27,446 bases of DNA from a virus (lineage: Duplodnaviria > Caudoviricetes). Numbering within the stretch: position 1 is the first letter of the stretch; the number at the start of each line of letters is the position of its first letter. The translations under genes were made by a program, and so were the position numbers. The notes below the pieces were generated by a model, which saw only the letters and a program-made list of their open reading frames with translations, did not search any database and had not been told where the DNA came from. The stretch covers positions 1-27,446 of the IMG/VR virus record IMGVR_UViG_3300032286_001171; one strand, 5' to 3'. Shown piece after piece: positions 2,277 to 27,446 of this stretch.

Positions 2277-5200
2277 ATGCCTGAAAATGCTGTAGTGGAA
2301 AGAAAAACCAACGATCCCGAAAGTACCAAAACAACCAATCAGCCAACAAAAGATGCCGATGCTGTACAAATTTATTCATCGTCGGGAAAACAAAATGTAC
2401 TAAACAAATATCGATCGTATACCTACAATTTTACATTGTCTGCACTTACCACTCAAGAATCTAATTCACCTGCATCATATAGGAGCAGTGAATTAAATTT
2501 AGTAATACTAAAGTCTGGGGGTAAGGGAAATGTCGATTGGGTACCTCCTGCCAGTCCTGCTAAATTTGACATGTTTATAGAAAATGTTGAAATAGAAACA
2601 ATTATGGCATTCACTCCTGAGGGCGGCCTTACCCAACCGTTACAGATTAAATTTGATGTTATTGAACCTTACAGTATTAATGGATTTATAGAAGCAATAC
2701 ATTTAGCTGCGGTAAAAGCTGGATATGACAGTTATTCTAATGCCAGTTTTCTGTTGAAAATGGAATTTGTTGGATATCCTGATAATGTAGATTTGCCTGA
2801 ACCTGAAATTGTTGAAAAATCTACTAGATATTTTGTTTTTCGTTTTACAGGAATGACGGTTGAGGTTACTGAGCGTGGTACAAAATATGCCTGCTCAGGT
2901 GTTCCGTTTGGGGACATGGCATTTGGTCAGGCGGGAAAATTAAAAAAACCAATAAAGATGTCAGGCGAAACCGTCAAAGATATATTAAAAGCATTAATGA
3001 AAGGACTCAGCGAGCAGGAAGCATATTCAGATGATAAATCTAAAACTCAATCTCTTGATTCTGATTCATATGCAATAAGTTTTCGAAGTTTTATGGGTGG
3101 TAGTTTTGTAGAAGATGAGAATGGGGCGATACCCAAGAGTAAATTAATTGAGCTCGGCAAAGATAATTCTCTTTATAAAATAGTAGATCCCGCCGATACT
3201 ACTAAACCTAATGCTTATCAGGTTGACAGTGCCACTCAACCTACCGCTGGTAATAATCCTGGAACCATCAAATATAATCCTAAAGAAACTGTAGTACAAT
3301 TTCCTGAAGGAGCTAATATTCATGAAGTTATTTCAGCAGTCGTTAGAGATAGTCAATATGTTAGAAACATTATCAAAACTTTGCCTATTGATTCTTATGG
3401 AATGGTAAACTATTTTAGTGTTAGGGCAGAAATTACAAATAAAACACAAATTAATCCTGATACTAAAAAGCCCTATCAAATTTTTACCTATGTAGTTAGT
3501 CCTTTTAAGATTCATTATACAGCTATACCTACTTATGAAGCTAATAAGATAGATGAAAAAAAATTAAAAAAACTAACAAATAGAGAATACAACTACATAT
3601 ATACAGGAAAAAATGTAGATGTCCTACATTTTAGATTGAATTTTAATAATTTATATTTTGAGGCTTTGCCCACAGCTTTAGGAAACAAAGAAACTCCGGG
3701 GACTAAAACAGCCGCCTCCCCTGGAAAGCAGCCGGAAATTAAATATACAAGTTCAGCACCCAGCGGTGGTTCTGTTCCTGCGGTTCCAAAAAATGTAGAT
3801 CCTGGGGTAACATCTGTAAGACCTCCTAGTGGGTATAATGCCAGCCAGCCACTCAACGATCCCTATAGTATTCTAGCCAAGAGCATGCATGAAAAAGTTC
3901 TCAATAGTGTTAGTCTATTGACTGGAGAGCTAGAAATTATAGGAGATCCTTTTTATCTAGTTACTGGAGGAGTAGGCAATTACAATCCGTCATCTAGCGG
4001 TGGACTTACACAAGACGGTGAGGCCGCACATACTGTTGGCCAGGTATTGATAACAATAAATTTTAGAAATCCCATAGATATTAAACCTGACGGTATGATG
4101 TACTTTGATGCCAATCGAGTTCCCTTTAGTGGAGTCTATATGGTACAGCAGGCTAACAGTACATTCAAAGATGGAATTTTTAAACAAGTATTAAAAATTA
4201 TTCGAGTACCTGGACAAATTATTGATCAAGACCTATCACCTAGCGACCCTAAGGATGGTATGGTATTATCACCTAATCCTTTAGATTCTCAAGTGGAAGA
4301 TACTACTTTTGCGGTACCCAGAGGCGAGAGGTTAGATGCATCTAGTGTTCAGGAACAGTTTGGTAGAGGAACACCTACTCCTGGTTTACCTGGTTCGCCG
4401 GTAAATGCTGTAGCGGCAACGGGAGGATTAGGGGGGAATTCTACATCATTGCTGAATCAAACTTTGGGATCTTTTCCTTCTGCAGGTTCATTATTGGCTA
4501 AATCTGCACAGATAGGACTGCCTTTGCCCGACGACGTTGCAACCAATATCAGACTAAGTTCATCTGGACTGGCCGATCTTAGCCAATATTCTTTGGCTAA
4601 CGCAGCTAAGGTTGTATCAACTGTGAAAAATTTACCAGGTGCCCTAAGTCTAGACAACGCTAAAACATTAGCCGGAAATCTTTCTTCAAATGCCATTAGT
4701 AGGGCATTAACAACAATTAATCCCGGCTCGGGAATAGGGCAAGGAGCAACATCTTTATTGTTCTCAGCAGCCGATCTAGCACTTACAGGAGGCACTTTGA
4801 GTCTATTAACTAACGGGCCTATGGGCAGTATAGCTACTTCTGTTATGGGAAAAGTAGTAGGACTTGGTGCAGATCAAATAAGTGGACTGGTTGGAAATGC
4901 TTCCAACAAAGTAGGTGCATTGTTAGGATCAGCAGCTGATCCCAAAGCATTGGCCGCTAAGGTAGGACTTGACCCTAGCAAGCTATCTGGTCTAGGCGGA
5001 AATCTGCAGAGTAAACTTTTAGGATCAATAGGTAAATTTAAAACACTACCAGAAAATGTCAATCTAACTCAGGCTGCTGCCAATGGCCTAGTTTTAGATT
5101 ACATTCCTGCTAACAAATTGGCCAATATTCCGGCCACGGCCCCATATGCAACTGCACCACCTCCAGATGTTGATACCGCTTATCTCAAAGAAGTTGCCGG

Positions 5201-5627: not shown

Positions 5628-8066
5628 ATGGCTTTTGACGAAAGAAAACGATCACCTCCTCCATCAGCTGGACCTTTTCTAGCTGAAGTTAGGAGTCATC
5701 TTGATCCGATCTATATGGGTAAATTAGAAGTTTCTATAGTTAAAAACATGCCGGGTTGGATAAAAACTCAAGCTGAAACTTACATTGCTAGTTATTGCAG
5801 CCCATTTATGGGGTCCACCTCTGTTAGATATGAGGGAAATAATAGTAGTGATTTTAATGACGTGCAAAAAACTTATGGATTTTGGGCAATACCTCCCGAC
5901 ATAGGTAATACCGTTATGATAATGTTTATTGAAGGTGATGCTAACCAATGTTATTGGTTTGGTTGTGTACAAGATCCATTTCAAAATCATATGATTCCCG
6001 GAATTGCGGCTAGTAAAAATGTAGCAATGACTGGTGAACAACGTAGAAAGTACGGTACAGATTTTTTACCTGTAGCAGAAGGTCATAAATCCTCTCTTAG
6101 TGAAAGCGAAACTCCGGCAGGAAAGGCCAAACCAGTACATCCATTTGCTGAAAGATTACTGCAACAGGGGCTATTGCTTGATACCATCAGGGGAGTAACT
6201 ACCAGTGGTGCTAGAAGAGAAGTTCCTAGTGGAGTTTTTGGTATTTCAACTCCGGGGCCGTTAGACACCAGTTCCGGAGCTAAAAGAGGAAAAATTGGAT
6301 ACGGTGACGGAAAAGAAGCTCCGGTTAGTAGATTGGGCGGTAGTACCTTTGTTATGGATGACGGTGATGTCAATGGGCAAAATGAATTAGTCAGAATTAG
6401 GACCAGGACAGGTCATCAAATTTTAATGCATAACAGTTATGATCTAATTTATATTGGTAATAGTAAAGGCACTGCATGGGTTGAATTAACCAGTAACGGT
6501 AAAATAGATATTTTTGCTCATGATTCAGTTTCTATTCATAGCGAACACGATTTTAATTTCCGTGCAGATAGGGATATAAATTTTGAAGCAGGCAGAAATA
6601 TTCATATTAGTGCTGGTAAAAATATGGAAACCAATGTTGGTGGATACTATTTTCTTTTAGTTGATGATAATTCTAAAATTTCGGTCAGGGGTACACAGGA
6701 CTATAGTGTCGGTGAAACTGCAAAACTTACTGTAGGTGGTAATCACGAAATATTAACAGGCAAAAGTTTTGTAGCCAGTGCCGATGGTGGGATTGATTTA
6801 AGTGGTGAAAGCCATGTCAGCATAGGTAGTGCAGCTAATTTAAATGTTGGAGCAAATGGAAATATTTTTGTTTCTGGCTCACAAATTGACTTAAATGGGC
6901 CTGCTGCCGCCGCCCCTGCTGTTGCCAGTCAGGCTGAGACTCCACCGGTTCTTACATTGTTTTCGTTGCCCAACAGACAGGTCTCTAAAGGATGGCCCAA
7001 CAGTGTTTTTTACAAGGCTGATGATATTAAAAGTATCATGCAGCGAGTTCCTACTCATGAGCCTTGGGATCAACATGAGAGTGTTAATCCTCAAAAATTT
7101 AGTCCTCAAGCGACAGATGTTACTTCGGCACCAAGGCCAGGAATACCTCCCCCGCCAGTTACCCTAGGTGGTGAATTAGATGGAGGCGGAGGTGCTGCTG
7201 GAGGCGGAGGTGCTGCTGGAGGCGGAGGTGCTGCTGGAGGCGGAGGTGCTGCTGGAGGCGGAGGTGCTGCTGGAGGCGGTCAGGGAAATACACCCCCTCC
7301 AAAAGCCCAGGAGCCTGCTAATCAACCGGCTGTTGTACCGGGGACCTGTTCTCCTAACTATGCTAAAGAAATTAATTCTAGTGCAGCACAAACTGGTATT
7401 GCTGCCTTGAAGAAAGCCGCAGCAGAAATGGGGTTAACAAGTCCTTATGCCGTTGCTTCTTTACTTGGAGTTGCTGGAGGGGAAAGCCATTGGGAAATCG
7501 TTGAAGAAAAGTTTGGATATAGTGCAGATAGATTATTACAGGTATTTCCTAGTGTGTTTAAAGGTGATAGAGAGTTAGCACAAAAATATGCAGGAAATCC
7601 AAATAATAGTTTACCAGAATTTTTGTACGGATATGATACCGCAAAGGGTAAAGGATTAGGAAATACAGAGCCTGGTGATGGTGCTAAATTTATAGGTAGA
7701 GGGTATATAGGATTAACTGGTCGTGCAAACTATACCAATTTTAGTAAATGGATGTACGAGGCACGCAAATTACCTACTCCTACGGCCCTAGTCGACAATC
7801 CTAAAATGATCAACGACCCAAAAATTGCAGCAGAGGTCAGTGTTTTATACTTTTTAAAATTGGTAAAAACTGCTCAAACAGATCCTGGTTATTTTGAAGC
7901 TGCTTATAGAAGGGTCGGTTTCTGTACTCAAGACATTTACACTCGAAAAAAAGGGTATTACGAGTGTTTTCTTGCACAACTGAAAGGTACCACTGTAAGT
8001 AGTGGGTCTGGCGGAATAGTGACTGATGGCAGCGGAAACCCAATTAAAACTGGGTCTGCTAACTAA
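5628..8066 (+). CDS. gp5: Central spike, gp5/VgrG-like (OB fold plus beta-helix), with C-terminal GH19 lysozyme/chitinase-fold peptidoglycan hydrolase
   Basis: OB-fold motifs DPIYMGKLEV and YGFWAIPPDIGNTVMIMF..G...YWFGCV; RTRTGHQILM; beta-helix-like V/I-x-G repeats (about 6500-6900). GH19 motifs ES..EE..YSA.RL...F..LYG..GLGN..GDG.KF.GRGYI.LTGRANY (about 7440-7975). Confidence 0.85.
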   Translation: MAFDERKRSPPPSAGPFLAEVRSHLDPIYMGKLEVSIVKNMPGWIKTQAETYIASYCSPFMGSTSVRYEGNNSSDFNDVQKTYGFWAIPPDIGNTVMIMFIEGDANQCYWFGCVQDPFQNHMIPGIAASKNVAMTGEQRRKYGTDFLPVAEGHKSSLSESETPAGKAKPVHPFAERLLQQGLLLDTIRGVTTSGARREVPSGVFGISTPGPLDTSSGAKRGKIGYGDGKEAPVSRLGGSTFVMDDGDVNGQNELVRIRTRTGHQILMHNSYDLIYIGNSKGTAWVELTSNGKIDIFAHDSVSIHSEHDFNFRADRDINFEAGRNIHISAGKNMETNVGGYYFLLVDDNSKISVRGTQDYSVGETAKLTVGGNHEILTGKSFVASADGGIDLSGESHVSIGSAANLNVGANGNIFVSGSQIDLNGPAAAAPAVASQAETPPVLTLFSLPNRQVSKGWPNSVFYKADDIKSIMQRVPTHEPWDQHESVNPQKFSPQATDVTSAPRPGIPPPPVTLGGELDGGGGAAGGGGAAGGGGAAGGGGAAGGGGAAGGGQGNTPPPKAQEPANQPAVVPGTCSPNYAKEINSSAAQTGIAALKKAAAEMGLTSPYAVASLLGVAGGESHWEIVEEKFGYSADRLLQVFPSVFKGDRELAQKYAGNPNNSLPEFLYGYDTAKGKGLGNTEPGDGAKFIGRGYIGLTGRANYTNFSKWMYEARKLPTPTALVDNPKMINDPKIAAEVSVLYFLKLVKTAQTDPGYFEAAYRRVGFCTQDIYTRKKGYYECFLAQLKGTTVSSGSGGIVTDGSGNPIKTGSAN
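7181..7279 (+). repeat. Perfect 18-bp tandem repeat (TGGAGGCGGAGGTGCTGC x5.5) encoding (GGGGAA)n
   Basis: Directly visible. Copies start at 7181, 7199, 7217, 7235 and 7253, with a partial copy at 7271, and there are no mismatches. Confidence 0.97.
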
Positions 8067-20900: not shown

Positions 20901-23687
20901 GGAAACTTTACTGATTATTATAACATTGTTTTTAGCGAAAACGGAACTATTCAAATTAAAAATAGTATATGGGATTATAGTAATGTAAACTATTCTTACG
21001 ATTCTGCTCCATTAGATGAAGCTCTATTTGATCAGGTACCTGATTTAGAATTATATTATATTCTAAATGCCTTAAAGGATGATCTATTTGTTAATGATCT
21101 CAAGGCCAATTGGAATTTATTTTTCTTTAAGGCTGTACGATATGCACTTACTGAACAAAAATTATTAGATTGGGCATTTAAGACCAGTTTTATCAGTGTA
21201 AAAAATACCACTGATATATTAAGCCAGCCGGTAGCCTATAGCCTAGATGCTAGTCAATACTATGAAGAATTTATCAAAGAGATAAAACCCTATCACTCCC
21301 AGATTAGGGAATTTGTTGCTACCTACAGTAATTTAGAAAATACCAGAATTAACACAACTGATTTTGATTTGCCTCCTTATTACGATGCAGAAATTGAAGA
21401 TTTTAATGTTGTAGAATTACAGGTTAATTCAATTAATACTGCAACATTAACTAGCACACCATTAGATCAATACCCTTGGAAATCATGGGCCGATAATTAT
21501 ACATATACATTAGACTCTATATTAGTCGCTGACTCAGGTAGTGGATATACTGAAGATCCTACTGTTAATATTACTGGTGGTAGTCCTGACGTTAATGCTA
21601 CTGCCAAGGCTTATATTCGAAATGGAGGTGTTTATCGAATTGTAGTCACGTATCCGGGTGTTAATTTTAGAGCGCTCCCACAAATAACCATAGCGGGTGG
21701 TGGGCTATATGTTACTAGAAATGCCACTGCTTCGGCTGTGCTTTCTAATCCTGTTGTACGTAAAAATATTGTAGGGATAAAATTTGATAGGTACAGTGTA
21801 GATTCTGAAATAGGCAATATTGAAGTAACTGAAACATTTACCTGTGACGGAAAGACAGCTGAATTTGAATTAGAGTGGATGGCAGACCCTGACAAGTTAA
21901 AAATATTTCCCACACTTGATAAGAAATTAGTACTATCTGCCAATTACAAAATTGTTCAATTTTCTAAAAATGAAGACGCTGAAAAATTTAACAAATATTC
22001 TAAATTTGTGTTCCTTGATACACTACCTAAAGAAAATCAAATTTTTAAAATTACCTATAGTAAAAATATTAGCTTATTCAATGCAGTAGATAGGGTGGAC
22101 ACTTATTATAATCCTAGTTCAACAATGCCAGGAAAATATTATCCATTATTAATGACTGGGTTTGAATATCCTGGAACATCTATCCAGGGACTGAGATTTA
22201 ATTATTCTACACCATTAGGCAATGAATACGGTAATTATGGAGGTGGTGGTTGGGATGATTTCGTTGACTATTACGCCAAAGCTAAGGTAGTTGCTGACGT
22301 TACTACCAGTACTACTACATTATTTTTAAGTACTACTACTGGTATTATTCCGGGACAAGTGATAAATTTCTTAAATTCCTCTACTCTTCGAGTAAGAACA
22401 GATACTGTGGTTGTTTCTGTTGATACATCGACTCGTTCTATTCAAATTAGTGCTCCCCAATATAATATTATAAGAGCTAGATCAACTGCTACTGCTATTG
22501 GTTCTGCTATGACTATAGAAACCTTGACAGAATTTTATGGGGACTATAGAGTAGGTGATAGGATATTGATCTCTGGAATAACAACCAGTGGATACAATGG
22601 TGAATATACCATTGACGCCATCTACAATAACACTATGTTTGGTGTTACCGCATATCAGGTGCTAGGAAATACGGTAGCCAATCTTACTATGGCTACTGTT
22701 AGAGCCTATAGTATATTGTCTCCGGTCTATGCTCAAACAAAATTACTAGGCAATTATAGTTTCAATGCAGGCTACTGTCCAGTATCAACGTCGACACTTA
22801 CTGCGGGTACGTTTGCAATTTCAGTAGCACCAGATGCGTATACCTGGTATTTTGGAACACCGTATTATTCATTTGGAACTATCCCATCGAGTATTAATGA
22901 AGGCTCTGTCGGTACATTTAATGTTGTTACAGCCAATGTTACAAATGGAACCACATTATACTGGACCATAGGAAATGTTAGTACTGCGGCCGCAGACTTC
23001 TCTGCATCATATGGCTCATTTACTGTTAACAATAATACCGGATCGTTTACAGTATCTCCTACTGCCGACACTACTACAGAAGGATTTGAAACATTTGTAG
23101 TTTATCTCAGAACTTTGAGTACATCGGGATCTATTGTGTCGACCAGTACCTCGGTGACAATTAATGATACAAGTCAAGGTGGTGGTGGAGGTGGTGGTGC
23201 TGCTGTAGCAGCATTCGCAGGCGGAACAGCTTTCTGGAATACTTTCTCATATTGGAGTTCTAACCAAATGACTGCTGTTCCGGCTAGTTATGCTGAATTC
23301 CAATTCAACACAAATGGTACAATATCTGTTGCTTACTCTAGTCCAGCTGGTCCATTATATGGCTATGTAGACCGATATGTCAATACATTTACCAACACCG
23401 GTACTAATTATGATATCAAAGTAGATATGAGAGTTGGTGATGGAGTACAACGGAGTACGGCTGCTAGAACCGATTATTATGTACTAGGTAACTTTGAATC
23501 TCCTGCTTCAGGTAATTCTACAGGGTGGGTCAACTTAGGAACACAGAGGACTATTCGTGTTGCATTGTCCTCTGGTGCAGATCCAATGGATTATGTGGCA
23601 CTGGCAACAACAGTGTCTATAGGACCTACAGGTACAGCTACTACTAGCACATCGTCGGTCTTTACTATTGACATAGGGGTCATCTAG
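11934..23687 (+). CDS. Giant multidomain baseplate wedge/fibre protein (gp7-position; N-terminal part of a split protein)
   Basis: 3917-aa ORF after gp6, beginning 'SVNFLPAYIRSDRNSKFLSSTIDQL'. Contains gp7-like motifs FYQGFIREKGT and FIKEIKPYH, two CBM5/12-like modules, FG-GAP-like repeats, GxGY..P.V.I.GG repeats, and a terminal Calx-beta-like plus beta-sandwich appendage. Confidence 0.75.
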   Translation: MAEQNKKSVNFLPAYIRSDRNSKFLSSTIDQLVQTPQLERIDGFVGSKVISNFDPAVDNYVTSASPLRNAYQLEPAAVFRDSVSNITDVVSYDDLINEISVQGGNADNLDRVFRTKFYSYDPLIDWDKLVNYNQYYWLPNGPDSISITTTTNNIIGHPTYTMPNGYAFSNGMKVTFTNSFTSGTTRVSSGTEYIIEGVGNSIRLIDMSLLEVNGSLATIYNETFDNSSFDQYGFDADEKVALIPEYITINRASRDLNAWSRYNRWVHRDVINTTAIISGTDPVYQFNYNAKRPIVEFKADIQLYKFGKNGIQNIDLIDDSTTDIDIIAGALGYYIDGELLQQGYRIVLNNADDLTIRNKIYKVGFTTGTSTIYLTETVDSGVNDLDSLSVNYGTNYSGKSFYYSADDNKWLYAQQHESLNEFPLFDLFSDDGISYTKNVNENNFSGNKVFGYELGSGIADKVLGFPVKQDQNAIGIGSYLFKNYFSTDSFSIVIDKVKQTQLVSTAFLKINNVDNDTYSLTNVWRSTEDYQIPILETQVIGISTSTVIALSLDAPLTNTVTSYLSFVNSKIIHTSATITANSLSVSFDNTLTENDVVLLKINTDQIPNSNGYYEPPLSLTNNPLNGPIASLTLSQLTDHVASMVYRSFNNDFVGEFPGSSNLRDLYDYAKYGMQLITNENPISFAHIFLGKKEHNVIDALRFAAEQYNQFKLNFLRTLGTITDQIDVVSIVDTILLEIGQNNTPKESFFRSDMVGYGPAKTIREITVTNSYISEYPIGVEFDLSKLSFKSVLIYVNDIQLISGQDYEFILANGSVHFLITLSVGTVIKIHYYESTLSGYIPSTPTKLGLYPKFVPGLITDDRYADGSQLMIQGHDGSLTKSYGDYRDNVILEFEKRIFNNIKIEYNRTLYDMMSVIPGAFRESDYTIDQTNDRLIHDYTKWASVYNVDIFTNNTYDSGTYRTWNYTNTVDTLLGKPAFGTWRAVFKYFYDTDRPHTHPWEMLGFTIKPSWWNSKYGAGPYTSLNTQLWTDLENGYIAGGEYQGTWDKYKRPGLSNIIPVDSSGVLRDLNAFLITGAGPSTQKEDWIFGDYSPAEVAWRNSSYWPFALNVAAALLYPGNYSSKLFDVSRTTINAVGQVVYKEDKLYLDPRKLLIDGINGAQTSGFGNFVIERGRKNYQDYPIKLSQDLIYLDLNLFHKLGGFTSKEKLQVRINAVDPQSTKPGVILPPEDYSLILNISNPIKSARISGVIVQKVDGNFVLKGYDRNYPFFNIYQPINSAIDGAIVVGGKQEHYDLWQPATSDGNSGLSAIDITTAGTYSIKFYKQGQIVLHNGRYYRVKTSHNAQTKFDLNLFQQLPRLPTTGGARVQTSNRFETVVTKVVYGSVFSTIQEVYDVLIGYGAWLEDQGFIFDQYNSDLAEMMDWKFSGKEFLYWSTQKWAEGNLITLSPFADYLKYKFKDSVVDNLFAKNYEYSLQKADGQGFPTDNFDIAREDSGCVIQTKDTQEGIFFAVLNSVQKEHGMVFNNTTIFNDTIYDPDSGYRQKRIRLYGFRTKGWNGDLTSPGFVYDNVEITEWQSYKSYIPGKVIRYNGVYYEANQQIISDETFDFTKWDILASKPIPQFVPNFDYKISQFDDFYSLDIDNFDYSQQKLAQHLIGYTPRNYLNKIFTDPIAQYKFYQGFIREKGTKKPLAKILKASQNRDQGSIEINEEWAIRVGNYGGFETYNEIEFTLQEGLYLENPYVIKFVDKAPSDPLALIHYTSSSNLLITPANYIATSTFVTIDGTFNDHNLELTTAGYVRTDDVTATAYNKNSLLDIANNSILQNGDTIWLGFLENGDWDVYRYTHQRAKIAGVYVSSPGSEITFVTNVHHNLQIGDIVSVVRFNAQVDGVHIVTAIPEVGQFTVASTLAGIVNEPLLAYGSLYRFESARHSDFAALATATDLFNLPENSKVWIDRDTDQKWAVYEKIKNYNTGTVYSSIPTPFGQHMGSSIVADKDSTTVLVSLPGYKSATSINYGKISVYSKSINETLVKKFDYALNTGGKNYCQPNTSTDFGYSLALDNAKDLFFVGAPIASAIRATTATATLVLSTGTGVIRPSYKEGLVKISSRNDRDTAEVTSAVLAQPYSTSTNANSRFGHSLYVNKVAASTSTLLLVGAPGSSAYAGTGTVYAYNINKFGTTVTVTNHPIGTTVNSTSTVSLNRGSLWGYSISGSDTGDIIAISAPKFYSSGSAGIVQIFDKNLHWKQNLYSPFDVNDQFGHAVEVSSSGEFIFVSSVRSQSYIGTIGKVAVYTVNSSGTYVLSQILSNPLENTNLKFGSAISISQDEQNLIISSLGTNRSRILKFYQNASKKLGETTFDNNETRFLSSVPDSGAVYIYNNFDSVFVQADELLPDEILEGSQYGRSLASTDNNIFVGAPFNDITQSAQDKSRVYQFKKKDSTKNSWYRLRNQEALVDVKPFQRVALIDTFNEEVLDYLDIVDPLKNKVVGTAEQELKYKLAADPAVYSVGLAATNNDTETNWLDEHVGELWWDLSTAKYVWYEQGNDTFRKNNWGKLFPGASIDIYEWVKSDLLPSEWAARADTTRGLIKGISGQPKYPDNTVISVKQVFNTVTGSFENVYYFWVKNKTTVPGLVNRRLSSLQVANLIADPLANGLKFVEVLSANSIAFANVQASLVGDRISANIAFDTIDNQIPRHTEWMLMQEGSSHSMPNELLDKKLIDSLLGRDLYGRSVPALELTFRNRYGLGIRPQQTLFKDRIEALRNLIDFSNYVLKNNQITNNYNFDKLNSYESIPDEMQREYDQIIDDIEQLDTINTTAYRQGQLTCIVRNGKIYSVSIIDSGYGYLLPPKVSVASSIDAEILTTIDNQGQIISVRVQNAGGGFVQAPILTVRPQAVVVASNTNAGGRWTLHTFNYRQNLWDKIRTQLYNTPLFWDYINWTADEYDQYKSIKYIIDNVYELNLITDPQPGDYIKIKNIGDNRSAILERIDQQLGNFTDYYNIVFSENGTIQIKNSIWDYSNVNYSYDSAPLDEALFDQVPDLELYYILNALKDDLFVNDLKANWNLFFFKAVRYALTEQKLLDWAFKTSFISVKNTTDILSQPVAYSLDASQYYEEFIKEIKPYHSQIREFVATYSNLENTRINTTDFDLPPYYDAEIEDFNVVELQVNSINTATLTSTPLDQYPWKSWADNYTYTLDSILVADSGSGYTEDPTVNITGGSPDVNATAKAYIRNGGVYRIVVTYPGVNFRALPQITIAGGGLYVTRNATASAVLSNPVVRKNIVGIKFDRYSVDSEIGNIEVTETFTCDGKTAEFELEWMADPDKLKIFPTLDKKLVLSANYKIVQFSKNEDAEKFNKYSKFVFLDTLPKENQIFKITYSKNISLFNAVDRVDTYYNPSSTMPGKYYPLLMTGFEYPGTSIQGLRFNYSTPLGNEYGNYGGGGWDDFVDYYAKAKVVADVTTSTTTLFLSTTTGIIPGQVINFLNSSTLRVRTDTVVVSVDTSTRSIQISAPQYNIIRARSTATAIGSAMTIETLTEFYGDYRVGDRILISGITTSGYNGEYTIDAIYNNTMFGVTAYQVLGNTVANLTMATVRAYSILSPVYAQTKLLGNYSFNAGYCPVSTSTLTAGTFAISVAPDAYTWYFGTPYYSFGTIPSSINEGSVGTFNVVTANVTNGTTLYWTIGNVSTAAADFSASYGSFTVNNNTGSFTVSPTADTTTEGFETFVVYLRTLSTSGSIVSTSTSVTINDTSQGGGGGGGAAVAAFAGGTAFWNTFSYWSSNQMTAVPASYAEFQFNTNGTISVAYSSPAGPLYGYVDRYVNTFTNTGTNYDIKVDMRVGDGVQRSTAARTDYYVLGNFESPASGNSTGWVNLGTQRTIRVALSSGADPMDYVALATTVSIGPTGTATTSTSSVFTIDIGVI
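15810..16765 (+). other. Two CBM5/12 (ChtBD3)-like carbohydrate-binding modules within the giant protein
   Basis: W...FYKQGQIVLHNGRYYRVKTSH...F (about 15810-16000) and EWQSYKSYIPGKVIRYNGVYYEA...W (about 16647-16765) fit the W..Y..G..V.yNG..Y pattern. Confidence 0.6.
17875..19235 (+). other. FG-GAP/integrin-alpha-like beta-propeller (~7 blades) within the giant protein
   Basis: Repeats MGSSIVA..VLVSLP, FGYSLAL..FVGAP, FGHSLYV..LLVGAP..GTVY, WGYSISG..IAISAP..GIVQIF, FGHAVEV..IFVSS..GKVAVY, FGSAISI..LIISS..GAVYIY, YGRSLAS..IFVGAP. Confidence 0.75.
22860..23174 (+). other. Calx-beta-like Ig domain near the C-terminus of the giant protein
   Basis: SSINEGS...TF.V.T.NV..GTTLYWTI......ADF....GSFTV....GSFTV...AD.TTEG.ETF.V.LR.........S.SVTINDTS. 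Confidence 0.7.
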
Positions 23688-23692
23688 CACCT

Positions 23693-23700
23693 TATAAATA
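23693..23700 (+). promoter_or_regulatory. T4-type late promoter TATAAATA, 5 nt before ATG 23706
   Basis: Exact consensus within an 18-nt intergenic gap: TATAAATA-TTAGC-ATG; no SD. Confidence 0.75.
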
Positions 23701-23705
23701 TTAGC

Positions 23706-25286
23706 ATGTCAACAGCAACATTTACAATATCAAACATAGGTGACAATCCGGTTACCATAACTGGCATTACATTTAATACGCCTAGCGGTATTTCTCATGT
23801 TGCTGATTTGACAAATTTAGGCGGAAGTTCTGCATTTACGGGCACAGTGGCTTCACTGTCCTACAATCTAAATTATCCGAATAGTCAAACTTTCACAGTT
23901 AATCATACTACAAATACTGGTGTACTAACAGCCTCAACATTGGCCAGTACTATAGTTATTAATGGTTCGAGTGGTACTTCGGCTACTATCACTGTAACTG
24001 ATATTGTGACAACATCTACAAATTTAGTATCTCCTACAACTTCTACATTTTATTCTTACACAGTCCCGGGTACCTACTATCTTGTACCACCTTATCGATA
24101 TGCTACTGCAACAATAATTGGAGCCGGTGGAGGAGGGGGCGGTAATGATGGTGGGGGCGATAATTGGGCAGGTGGCGGCGGTGGTTCCGGTGCCTACACC
24201 GTTAGTTATTTAGATTTCAACAACACAGGAAGTCTAGAGATTGTTGTCGGAGCAGGAGGTCTACCTGCTAGTGTAAGTTTTAATGGTTACGATTATCCTG
24301 GAATAGAAGGCAAAACCAGGACAGGTACTAAGGCCGGAGGAACCGGCGGTACCTCCTTTGTTTTTTGGACTACTTCGGGTTATTATTATTCATCATTTGC
24401 TACTGGCGGCGGCGGCGGTAGTGGTAATACCAGTGATGCACAATATAACATCACAGGTGGGGCAGGGGGGTCTACTTCCGGTACAGGTCTTTCACAAAAT
24501 GGAGCCAAGGGCGAGGATGTAACTAGGCCTACCTTTGAAAGAAACAGTTATAGGGCCGCATACGGTGGGGCTATTTCAGGAATTACCACAGGTACTGGCG
24601 GCAATAGCCATGACAGTAATTTTGGTGATAATTTAGATATACATTTGCCTCAAGGTGGTGGTGATGGTGCTGTTTTTCTTCTTTTCAGTAACACAAATCC
24701 TGCAGGTGCCGGTATATCAGTTGTTTCAAACTTTGGACAACCTGGATCTAGCATAACCTCTCTCAATGGTAGATCAAAACCTTCATACACTATGGTGCAG
24801 ATAACTTCTGCTGGCGGATTCAATTTTGATATTAGTTCACTATCGAGTCAAGCAGGTTCTGGAATTGATGTATATCCAGCTCCTGCTAGCAATCAAAGAT
24901 GGGCTACAGAACCGTTAATTGGAGGTACCCCGGTCAGCAGTACCGGATATTATGTAAGGGCTAGAGTCGATCCATTAACCGCTTGGTTAGGTGATGCTGC
25001 ATTTACAGGGCCAGGATTTGCCACCGCACTTGATAACAGCTATTTTGCTATTTATGGTTATAGTTCGGTGCAAGGTAGTTGGGTAACTATAACTACCGCA
25101 ACTAATTATGTTAATGGGTTTGGAAAATCAGGATGGCGTTTATATGGAATATATGATCCTTCGTCGGGGGATGATTCTTCTGCTCTATGTAATTTAACTA
25201 TAGAAGTTTCGAATACGACGACCGGAGTTATATTAGCATCTGGCTCTTATCAATGCTACATGTACTCCAATAATTCTTACGCATAA
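23706..25286 (+). CDS. Putative adhesin/receptor-binding protein: Ig-like (ASH-type) domain, polyglycine domain and C-terminal beta-sandwich
   Basis: N-terminal TFTISNIGDNPVTITGI...SQTFTV (Ig/ASH-like). The middle YTVPGTY...IIGAGGGGGG..GGGGGSGAY..IVVGAGG..GGTGGTS..ATGGGGG..GGGDGAVFL resembles glycine-rich phage adhesin domains (T-even gp38-type polyglycine sandwich). The C-terminal domain is aromatic-rich. Confidence 0.7.
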   Translation: MSTATFTISNIGDNPVTITGITFNTPSGISHVADLTNLGGSSAFTGTVASLSYNLNYPNSQTFTVNHTTNTGVLTASTLASTIVINGSSGTSATITVTDIVTTSTNLVSPTTSTFYSYTVPGTYYLVPPYRYATATIIGAGGGGGGNDGGGDNWAGGGGGSGAYTVSYLDFNNTGSLEIVVGAGGLPASVSFNGYDYPGIEGKTRTGTKAGGTGGTSFVFWTTSGYYYSSFATGGGGGSGNTSDAQYNITGGAGGSTSGTGLSQNGAKGEDVTRPTFERNSYRAAYGGAISGITTGTGGNSHDSNFGDNLDIHLPQGGGDGAVFLLFSNTNPAGAGISVVSNFGQPGSSITSLNGRSKPSYTMVQITSAGGFNFDISSLSSQAGSGIDVYPAPASNQRWATEPLIGGTPVSSTGYYVRARVDPLTAWLGDAAFTGPGFATALDNSYFAIYGYSSVQGSWVTITTATNYVNGFGKSGWRLYGIYDPSSGDDSSALCNLTIEVSNTTTGVILASGSYQCYMYSNNSYA

Positions 25287-25292
25287 TCTAAT

Positions 25293-27446
25293 ATGAATAC
25301 TATTGACAATATATCTACAGCACAATCTGTAACGTTAATTACAGATAGTCCTTTTACGGACGTCACTAAGGCTATAGTCATAGTCAATAATGTCATACTT
25401 ACTACAGCTACTTCTACTGTTACTTCCTACTATGAGTTAATAGCAGATTCAGTGGGCCGAGCAACTATAAACATCAAAAATGTAACAGACACTTCCGTAT
25501 GTTACGCCATCACAGCTACTATCTATGGCGATCCTGCGGTTGAATTTTGGAAATATGATTTTGACGCTGCCGGACTAGATACTGCTATATCAGGTGGAAA
25601 TTGGGACAATTCTGGAAACTTAATTGGAGCCTTAGGATATGCTCCGGAGGATTTGATCATAGATGGTGATGCTTTTATGTCGCCTAATGTCAGTTATGCT
25701 CCTGAAGAATTTGTTCCCGGTCATACTTTAGATAGTCTTGGCATAAATGTATATACCAAAGACAGCCAATCATACGGCACAATAATAACTGGCTCATTTC
25801 CAGTAACAGCAGGAACTACGACATCTGCATATCTTTCTACTTTGCCAGAAGCTGATGCAGGTATTATGGTCTATTACGGCAACACAATATTTCAAAGATC
25901 TACATCTTTAGGGTCACTGACAGGCAATCAATTTTTTATAGAAGGTGATCAGCTAATTCTTCCTCCCCAGGCTGTTTCCGGGCGTGGAGGATACACAATA
26001 GTGAGAATTGGAGGAAGTGGGCTAGTTGATAGCAATGTAGTATCTGTGGTTAACACATCCACCGGTGTTGTAGATAGTTTATTGAGTTATGCGGATGTTA
26101 GAGCAGTGTATGTGTTAGTTAATGGACAAGAAGTCAGTCAAGTAACTACAACATCTAACTATGGTTACATGATACAACCTGATTTTACAGATAATAAAAG
26201 AGCTAGTGTTTGGTTATATAATTTACCTTATGATTCCAACACTATAGAAGCATGGTTCTTTGATACTCCCTATATAAAATTCAATAGGATGAATGAAGAA
26301 TATTTTTCTGCGATATCTCCAACATCTACCTTTGTCTTAACACATCCTCCGGGAGATTGGGAACCGTTTAGTGACAAAGCCATAGTTGAAACCGGGTTTG
26401 GTTCATCTGGAACTGTTCGCACAAGAAAATCACCACCACCTGTTAGTAACTATTTTATTGCTAATAATCAAACTGTTTTTGCAATTGATAATAAAGTGAG
26501 TCATCCTCCTAGCTATTATCTAGCTGGCCAAATTATGGTCTATGCAAATGGAATTCGGTTGTCGTCGGGATTTGATTTTACATTTGACCTGCCTAATAAT
26601 AACATAATATTGACCACTGGTCTGTTTCCTAATGGAACTTATATTTCTATTGCTAGATTAGAAGATTACGAATATGTGATCAGTGGAAATATTTTACAGT
26701 TTGTAACACCTGTGTCTAATACCACAATTAAAGTCACTACATTTAATAATCACGATGCTATGTTTATGCAAACTGAAAAATTTTCATATACTCCCATCAA
26801 ACGATTTACACTTCAAAGACCTGTAATCAATGACAATTATGTTTGGGTATATCTTAACGGAGTTCCCTTAGTTCATCGTTATGATTTTGAAATATTAGAA
26901 GATCAAAGAACAATACAGTTAGACGAGTGGTTAGTGGTAGCCGACCTTAATAGTACACTATTGATTACATCAATTCTGATGCCAGAATATACTGGTAGAA
27001 TTTTAGGGTTTAGAGTTTTCAATGACTTTTTTGACAGATCGCATTACAAAAGATTATCGGCCTATCATACTACCTTTTTGACCGAACCTTTAAAATATAC
27101 CGATAATAAAATAGTAGTTCACGATGGGGATGGCAGGCTATCCCCATTTAATGCTCAAAGAAATATACCGGGTGTTGTGCTCATTGACAGAGAAAGAATC
27201 GAATACAATGAAAAAGATGGTAATGTTTTAACATATCTAAGAAGAGGCACGTTAGGAACAGGTCCTGCGTTTTATGCAGACGAAGCTACTAAGGTAATAG
27301 ATCAAGGAATTCAACAGACTATTCCCTATTCAGATACTGTATATATTCAACATTTTACATCAACAAATACCACTACCTATATCATAACAGCTACTAGTAC
27401 ATCGACAATTGGTGATGGTATAACATTAACCAGTGGAATTGACGCT
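25293..27446 (+). CDS. C-terminal portion of the giant baseplate/fibre protein, encoded as a separate ORF (>=718 aa, runs off the window)
   Basis: Not in the ORF track. Manual translation from ATG 25293 is open to the end: MNTIDNISTAQSV...VEFWKYD..LDTAISGG..ALGYAPEDLIIDGDAF.SP..SYAPEEFVPGHTLDSLGINVYT...FRVFNDFFDRSHYKRL...PGVVLIDRERIEY...LRRGTLGTG...QTIPY. I recall these motifs from the C-termini of giant post-gp6 proteins of related large myophages. It also has repeated VYxNG-type Ig-like units. Confidence 0.8.
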   Translation, partial: MNTIDNISTAQSVTLITDSPFTDVTKAIVIVNNVILTTATSTVTSYYELIADSVGRATINIKNVTDTSVCYAITATIYGDPAVEFWKYDFDAAGLDTAISGGNWDNSGNLIGALGYAPEDLIIDGDAFMSPNVSYAPEEFVPGHTLDSLGINVYTKDSQSYGTIITGSFPVTAGTTTSAYLSTLPEADAGIMVYYGNTIFQRSTSLGSLTGNQFFIEGDQLILPPQAVSGRGGYTIVRIGGSGLVDSNVVSVVNTSTGVVDSLLSYADVRAVYVLVNGQEVSQVTTTSNYGYMIQPDFTDNKRASVWLYNLPYDSNTIEAWFFDTPYIKFNRMNEEYFSAISPTSTFVLTHPPGDWEPFSDKAIVETGFGSSGTVRTRKSPPPVSNYFIANNQTVFAIDNKVSHPPSYYLAGQIMVYANGIRLSSGFDFTFDLPNNNIILTTGLFPNGTYISIARLEDYEYVISGNILQFVTPVSNTTIKVTTFNNHDAMFMQTEKFSYTPIKRFTLQRPVINDNYVWVYLNGVPLVHRYDFEILEDQRTIQLDEWLVVADLNSTLLITSILMPEYTGRILGFRVFNDFFDRSHYKRLSAYHTTFLTEPLKYTDNKIVVHDGDGRLSPFNAQRNIPGVVLIDRERIEYNEKDGNVLTYLRRGTLGTGPAFYADEATKVIDQGIQQTIPYSDTVYIQHFTSTNTTTYIITATSTSTIGDGITLTSGIDA

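Follow-up and report, generated by a model that had tools for sequence, protein, structure and literature searches.

The locus analysed here raises the question of how a very large virion protein can be divided between two genes in the middle of a domain, and how its two parts might come together again. The window, that is, the whole stretch of 27,446 nucleotides (positions 1 to 27,446 of IMG/VR record IMGVR_UViG_3300032286_001171, a virus of the Caudoviricetes), contains an open reading frame (ORF) of 3917 amino acids (aa) for the N-terminal part of a giant baseplate protein (hereafter the giant), then a 526-aa gene, then ORF 25293 (the partner), which carries the C-terminal part of the ancestral giant. 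This layout was recovered exactly as in a preliminary description, made from the sequence alone, which interpreted it as one domain interrupted by an adhesin cassette of about 2.5 kb. Comparison of relatives indicates instead one old fission common to a clade of 17 phages.

We propose a single cut of the ancestral protein, located in a small beta-sandwich inserted in a barrel, between its strands A and B, after which the halves would rejoin post-translationally by a two-way strand exchange. Strand 3603–3612 of the giant would fill the sandwich of ORF 25293, and the strand PAVEFW of ORF 25293 would fill the barrel of the giant. Each side gained a cysteine (Cys3615 and Cys70), and the two probably lock the joint when the virion has left the cell. 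As the donor strand lies 315–692 residues before the end of the giant in the split loci, the chain would continue past the joint as a side arm, made of Calx-beta-like repeats and ending in an Ig-like domain, and a linear protein would become a Y. In the lineage of the window, a second break would have released the tip of the arm as the 526-aa protein; the giant would have gained a new end (domain U), and the tip a new first module and its own promoter-like motif. Taken as a whole (single fission, two-way strand exchange, disulfide and side arm), this explanation appears quite likely. The comparison of loci shows where the fission lies, that the split forms make up a single clade, how the cysteines are distributed and where the 526-aa gene comes from.

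Fused and split forms of the giant

The giant and ORF 25293 were compared in 86 distinct rows (loci with at least 550 matched residues, duplicates dropped): 66 were fused, 17 were split, and three, lying at contig ends, were unclassified. One locus (L021) was classed as fused by hand, and in L007, L095 and L096 the contig carries only the end of the upstream ORF. The fused relatives join both parts exactly at the split point of the window, in one continuous ORF as the preliminary description had foreseen. The split rows made up one side of a branch with a support of 99* (FastTree, all 86 rows), of 94 SH-aLRT (quick IQ-TREE, 33 rows), and of 89/77 with L096 or 100/99 without it (careful IQ-TREE, 25 rows). 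The trees were built on the partner from approximately residue 80, with the junction largely excluded. Since all outgroups are fused, a single fission is the simplest history. There were no informative DNA repeats at the ends of the supposed cassette.

Among cultured phages, PA5oct has the same gene order, and a single ORF of 3857 aa (PQE65_gp355), annotated as detected in virions with ESI-MS/MS (tandem mass spectrometry following electrospray ionization), has matches to the giant as well as to the RRGTLGT region of ORF 25293. Both parts also lie in one ORF in Atu_ph07 (FDI40_gp180, 4449 aa). The RRGTLGT-type region thus sits in ORF 25293 here, whereas it belongs to the same chain as the giant in these two phages. 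Their identity to the giant was 27–33%, and that to the RRGTLGT region was 43% over 92 aa in PA5oct. In the PA5oct and Atu_ph07 giants, BLAST matched neither the barrel-sandwich junction nor the tail. Phage SCTP-2 matched the giant only, with no match to the RRGTLGT region at E < 0.01, and 11 records of cultured phages matched the RRGTLGT region only. No relative was present among 64 candidate stretches of genome contigs. Seven fused relatives (L013, L019, L078, L079, L101, L107 and P0060) carry extra domains elsewhere in the C-terminal part without being split; insertion without fission is therefore common in the giant family.

The fold of the cut region was modelled on the junction of the fused relative L075 (AlphaFold2, 24 rows), with a predicted local distance difference test (pLDDT) score of 89.8. 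The model contained a barrel into which a second barrel is inserted, followed by a sandwich of six strands and by a strand returning to the first barrel. Strand A was at residues 169–178 and the last barrel strand at 246–252; structural matches spanned residues 11 to 252. The simpler fused relatives L023 and P0007 are devoid of the sandwich. The break falls between sandwich strands A and B: KLLGNYSFNA of the giant corresponds to strand A, and ORF 25293 holds strands B to F together with the return strand, so that two domains are divided between two genes. The preliminary description had correctly named KLLGNYSFN (giant residues 3603–3611, nucleotides 22740–22766) as the missing strand, and the sandwich as the split domain; that the outer barrel is split as well, and that a cysteine pair marks the joint, had both escaped it. 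The likeness that it had seen between the start of ORF 25293 and an internal paralogue lacking nothing was borne out by hhalign (97.8%, E 6.6e-13, against residues 243–325 of the same ORF), the alignment beginning only at residue 10. In fused relatives, the same domain aligned with its first strand included (96.9%). The acceptor sandwich of ORF 25293 is thus without a strand that is present in intact homologues. A likeness of the sandwich to residues 187–250 of CBA120 TSP4 (Z 6.7, root mean square deviation (rmsd) 2.2, 61 aligned) was within the background and was set aside.

The predicted joint and its cysteines

The two halves were submitted to complex prediction as giant residues 3436–3629 (chain 1) and ORF 25293 residues 1–102 (chain 2). 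The donor strand was placed in the sandwich of the other chain, which is the sheet completion between chains that had been anticipated, with a score of 0.73 compared to 0.01 for the best control; because both alignments included the matching halves of 24 fused relatives, and split-gene halves tend to pass, this value shows the fit to the fused fold and not binding. The score mark was reached by 116 of 157 solved pairs and by 2 of 215 mismatched pairs. The runs shared at least 90% of contacts. The donor strand was antiparallel to partner residues 71–79, in the register 170:78, 173:75 and 176:72, and the barrel contact 13:85 (Ala3448 with Phe85) was among the best predicted contacts. The confident interface covered residues 163–181 of chain 1 and 66–88 of chain 2, including both cysteines. 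In nine of 15 tails, a complete repeat begins 3–4 residues past the cysteine of the giant, which places the donor strand outside that repeat. The predicted fold and a reassembly by strand exchange appear quite probable.

The motif G-x-C follows the donor strand in all 14 split loci holding the junction (the rows of alignment A4) and in P0056, making 15 of 15. Cys70 was present in 32 of 32 rows of alignment A3, and in all 33 stand-alone partners whose N-terminus is intact. Alignment A3 comprised the window and 31 of 36 hits; left out were P0011 and P0015 (near-copies, also with Cys70), P0043 and P0045 (without the N-terminus) and P0046 (a fused fragment). The 68 profile hits in long proteins corresponded to 43 fused junction domains and 25 internal paralogues. 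Both sites lack cysteine in every one of the 43 fused junction domains, one of which carries a cysteine elsewhere. Conservation of the donor strand and of G-x-C extends to identities as low as 38–52%. Cys3615 and Cys70 are thus a reasonably likely candidate for an inter-chain disulfide.

Besides the limit on the score given above, several points weigh against the proposal. All the evidence is computational, and no solved homologue was found by sequence, a result which also makes the memory of a solved complex unlikely. The cysteine counts go back to a single origin and do not represent independent events. In the predicted register, Cys70 faces the invariant Gly3613, Cys3615 lies two positions on, and the pair was not among the 25 best contacts listed; with such an offset, a disulfide would require either a bulge or a diagonal arrangement. 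In both IQ-TREE trees, the split clade was placed as sister to the sandwich-bearing fused rows and not nested within them. The start of the partner, MNTIDNI, with an invariant Asp5, resembles KLLDQV of the fused forms and could supply part of strand A. Further out on the proposed arm, domain T had no informative solved match (best Z 5.3, rmsd 4.4, 118 aligned), and the 526-aa protein had no convincing solved homologue, gp38 and gp24 being absent from the four weak rows found.

It is conceivable, though unlikely, that the strand complementation is real and that the cysteines bond other virion proteins, bind metal or stay free. The register, off by two, would agree with this, and baseplate cysteines can link different wedge proteins, as in phage Milano (PMC10811340) and, by proposal, between T4 gp10 Cys555 and gp7 (PMC3004832), according to the excerpted text of both sources. 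However, the pair appears jointly, only in split forms, at chain ends that meet, and in proteins where cysteine is rare: Cys70 is alone in the 718 residues of ORF 25293 within the window, and the giant has five in 3917.

An improbable alternative is that the partner repaired itself, ORF 25293 having replaced strand A by a short one formed from its N-terminal residues, so as to fold alone. Contact between the halves would then depend only on the barrel strand and on further interactions in the baseplate, and the old strand of the giant would be a linker or an added edge strand. All stand-alone partners do keep the N-terminal pattern M-K/N-T/I-I-D-Q/N-I, similar to KLLDQV of the fused forms. Against this, the paralogue alignment begins past these residues, partner residues 1–12 lie outside the confident interface, and contacts to the giant piece involve residues 13, 15, 17 and 19 of strand B. 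The partner pLDDT was 77–79 in the complex and dropped to 56 when an unrelated chain replaced the giant piece, and donor strand and G-x-C are conserved even at low identity.

A rejoining at the level of RNA or the ribosome (splicing, bypass or stop readthrough), giving one protein, is very improbable. The giant, the 526-aa ORF and ORF 25293 of the window do lie in one frame, separated by TAG and TAA. However, the partner start is out of frame in eight of 14 split loci, so readthrough is not a general joint; ATGA or TAATG overlaps occur in seven, and in L001 and L002, two related contigs, the giant and the 526-aa gene are out of frame and 29 bases apart. In addition, Met1 of the partner is invariant, the tails continue the reading frame of the giant without a stop, and no joints were seen in DNA contigs; one RNA run contained a share of 0.05. 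Stop-codon recoding was also considered and rejected, the ORFs being intact under table 11 and the frames differing among relatives.

An assembly artefact or a dead gene, which could be suspected in a metagenomic contig where no single piece covers the entire region, is already refuted by independent contigs, by the 17 distinct split loci with intact ORFs and by junctions bridged in other runs. The three-gene layout was repeated in L001 and L002, at 88–91% protein identity. Contigs of run X2 bridged 22780, 23687–23706 and 25286–25293, and a contig of run X6, from another study, bridged 22780 and 23687–23706. The bridging runs from other studies are labelled as freshwater metagenomes. No joint skipping the insert was seen in the bridging contigs of other runs, which cover the stretch in pieces, joint by joint, none spanning it whole, with X5 and X7 patchy and 23170–23215 skipped as a repeat. 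The misassembly that the preliminary description had wished to see checked was thus not found.

The side arm and its surroundings

The tails of the giants contain one to three detected Calx-beta-like repeats and differ in module content among split loci. The name is given because the scores are under the curated cut-off: PF03160 reached 13.6–20.8 bits, compared to a cut-off of 27, in five of the 12 tails scanned. The repeat of the window is 43–70% identical to repeats of multi-repeat proteins carrying PF03160. The preliminary description had given the order of the tail correctly, with Gly7 and a terminal domain, the Calx-beta match being weak. In 11 of the 14 loci holding the junction, the tail of the giant ends with domain T, directly before the partner gene. 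Domain T, found solely in split loci among the loci examined, is predicted to be an elaborated Ig-like sandwich (AlphaFold2, pLDDT 90.2); its BFVD matches were unnamed or uncharacterised, and Atlas gave no result. Domain U, which ends the giant of the window, matched DUF6645 at 0.92 in Atlas, a weak lead with low recognition. A direct homology of U and T was rejected (hhalign 0.5%). Each matched a shared intermediate profile (88.1% and 95.9%, with a hand-picked set of eight domains), and they are probably remote relatives.

The origin of the 526-aa gene is shown by P0056, in which giant, G-x-C, two repeats, Gly_rich_2 and domain T form one chain, 42% identical to the 526-aa protein over residues 74–523; its domain T is nearly that of L096. 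As P0056 has both in one chain, the 526-aa gene is the detached tip of the giant's own tail, and the foreign adhesin cassette of the preliminary description is ruled out. Its Gly_rich_2 domain was above the cut-off (PF21722, E 5e-7, 30.4 bits compared to 24.3). It is rather likely that the virion contains this protein. A second strand complementation, between the last strand of the giant (IDIGxI) and the first domain of the 526-aa protein, was considered and rejected: most of the 51 relatives of this domain start at or near Met, and 11 have longer leaders, Thr/Pro-rich or other linkers, with no conserved strand. This first module of approximately 100 residues (23706–24020; P0064–P0114; 51 relatives, no Pfam match) also opens many modular proteins of 100–900 aa and stands alone, and it is a candidate virion anchor domain.

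The ends of several tails showed particular features. The S74 family usually caps trimeric fibres, which makes it odd on a protein expected to be monomeric; a Peptidase_S74-like intramolecular chaperone was visible at the tail end of L008 (6097–8001), under the cut-off (E 4e-4). The tail end of L087 (4955–6994) is intein/Hint-like, also under the cut-off (Pfam E 1.6e-3), starts with Gly-Cys, ends near His-Asn and may process itself; a similar end was seen by eye in P0072. In L007, L010, L012, L086, L093 and L095, the last residues of the tail form a short acidic motif (DFRDLL or similar) adjoining or overlapping the partner start codon; it may act as a peptide motif, or may result from the region where translation starts. 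An indel of 11 bases and several substitutions separate the window from L001 and L002 in positions 23660–23706, yet the giant ends with IDIG-x-I-stop in all three. In the window, this leaves the giant, the 526-aa ORF and ORF 25293 in one reading frame.

A sharp change in divergence was observed between L001 and L002. Before position 22695, 55 of 286 bases differ, compared to 20 differences over approximately 1440 bases from 22695 to 24130; the flanks differ by approximately 15%. The two contigs share one allele of the G-x-C joint. Such a low divergence suggests that a block with donor strand, cysteine, tail and the beginning of the 526-aa gene has moved recently between lineages. The comparison points to an exchange of alleles between close relatives, not of unrelated cassettes. 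Mosaic tracts were also seen within the 526-aa gene (24070–25265), where the window and L002 are 93–98% alike and the window and L001 98% alike over the last 300 bases. The swappable host-range slot of the preliminary description thus stands in part: module content is variable and the block undergoes recombination, but the same domain T is retained directly upstream of the partner gene in all 17 split loci. For the arm, binding to host or other surfaces is slightly favoured; a host-range role is suggested by domain content and by analogy with glycine-rich fibre tips, as these appear in the available part of PMC9608196.

The window corresponds to the baseplate module, a late-gene module, of a jumbo myophage of the PA5oct-like type (Table 1). 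A late sigma factor gene (1–552) is followed by gp53-, gp5-, gp25- and gp6-like genes, each matching the family so named, and then by the giant, the 526-aa ORF and ORF 25293. The giant belongs to phrog_10938 by its profile match and its position after the gp6-like gene. The gene order suggests a gp7-like role; in the comparison with the T4 gp7-like wedge protein (BW3), one BFVD row was named baseplate wedge initiator (E 4.2e-5, TM 0.31). The full length of ORF 25293, taken from L001 and L002, is 841 aa. The promoter announced upstream of the 526-aa gene was found as the motif TATAAATA, in the same module as the late sigma factor gene; it is promoter-like, and we take it to resemble the T4 late promoter. 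TAAATA occurs nine times in the window, four of them within the 219 intergenic bases. In the gp5-like hub (5628–8066), GGGGAA is repeated five times, and the C-terminal domain matches endolysin/chitinase PHROGs (phrog_181 and phrog_14712). Residues 1572–1600 of the giant matched CBM_5_12 above the cut-off, in two stretches.

Table 1. Coordinates of the giant, its proposed parts and the neighbouring genes in the window.
Feature	Position	Strand	Basis or remark
Giant virion/baseplate protein, N-terminal part, 3917 aa	11934..23687	+	phrog_10938, E 0, 1018.7 bits
Outer beta-barrel of the giant without its last strand, residues ~3444–3505	22263..22448	+	AlphaFold2 model of fused L075; predicted contact 1:13 with 2:85
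Second barrel inserted in the first, residues ~3506–3597	22449..22724	+	model range 71–160 matched as a separate barrel
Predicted donor strand KLLGNYSFNA, residues 3603–3612	22740..22769	+	first strand of the split beta-sandwich; aligns with L075 strand 169–178
G-x-C motif with Cys3615 (22776–22778)	22770..22778	+	candidate disulfide partner
Calx-beta-like Ig repeat of the tail	22860..23177	+	Pfam E 0.07, under the cut-off
Gly7 linker	23178..23198	+	sequence
Terminal domain U and stop codon	23199..23687	+	probable remote relative of domain T
Late-promoter-like motif TATAAATA	23693–23700	+	upstream of the 526-aa gene
526-aa protein	23706..25286	+	Ig-like N-terminal module ~1–105, Gly_rich_2 120–336, domain T 336–526
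ORF 25293, C-terminal part of the ancestral giant as its own gene	25293..27446	+	718 aa, open at the window end
Acceptor beta-sandwich without strand A, ORF 25293 residues 10–80	25320..25532	+	paralogue alignment, predicted complex
Cys70 of ORF 25293	25500..25502	+	sole cysteine in 718 residues
Return strand PAVEFW, predicted to complete the outer barrel of the giant	25533..25550	+	E84 invariant, 38/38 rows of alignment A2
Intact internal paralogue of the split sandwich	26019..26267	+	hhalign 97.8%

Comparison with known systems

A literature search, limited to main texts and with most subscription journals outside its scope, found no paper on a split giant. The excerpted text on PA5oct (PMC7318152) describes its virion proteins without such a split. 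The giants of PA5oct and Atu_ph07 occupy the same place after the gp6-like gene, but as a single ORF.

The arrangement proposed here would be a route by which a structural virion protein gains a free end in mid-chain while keeping its fold, through a cut in an inserted domain, a strand zip and a staple. A fuller version, "cut and staple", would combine the two-way exchange, a disulfide replacing the peptide bond and a C-terminus used as a branch point for a recombining host-attachment arm, with a tip that is chaperone-like or intein-like (L008, L087) or has its own gene (the window); as a whole, its chances seem somewhat less than even. One tree can accommodate the fused forms, the split forms, the acquisition of both cysteines and the second fission, so that the gain of a branch or binding module by a baseplate is testable, with fragments of 194 and 102 residues. 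If the predicted binding is true, the pair would be a natural covalent split-domain coupler.

Incomplete beta-sandwiches completed by a strand from another chain are known from chaperone-usher and type V pili, in which subunits polymerise, donor strands are terminal, and chaperones or proteases take part. The joint considered here differs in being one-to-one and in arising from a gene fission in a virion protein. There is one joint between two unlike chains, the paralogous sandwich of ORF 25293 is intact, and the donor element is internal, all the residues of the tail following it.

Strand donation between phage proteins is already known. In the siphophage Tuc2009, a C-terminal hairpin extension of BppU completes a beta-sheet of BppA, in one direction only, as described in the available part of PMC4742702. 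The likeness is that a baseplate protein donates beta structure to another and thereby attaches an extra host-binding module. In contrast to Tuc2009, the models here predict a single internal donor strand and a two-way exchange across two nested domains, fused relatives are known, and a cysteine pair was gained. Inter-chain disulfides of the baseplate are documented between BW1 and BW3 of Milano, and the T4 gp10–gp7 bond mentioned above was proposed. Those cysteines join proteins that have long been separate, whereas the pair considered here would replace a lost peptide bond. Compared with Pam3 gp24 and S16 gp38, as presented in the accessible text of PMC9608196, the 526-aa protein had no sequence match to these solved structures, and its glycine-rich domain is followed by domain T. 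Relative to known strand complementation between proteins, the novelty would be that the predicted donor strand is internal, so that the joint forms a branch.

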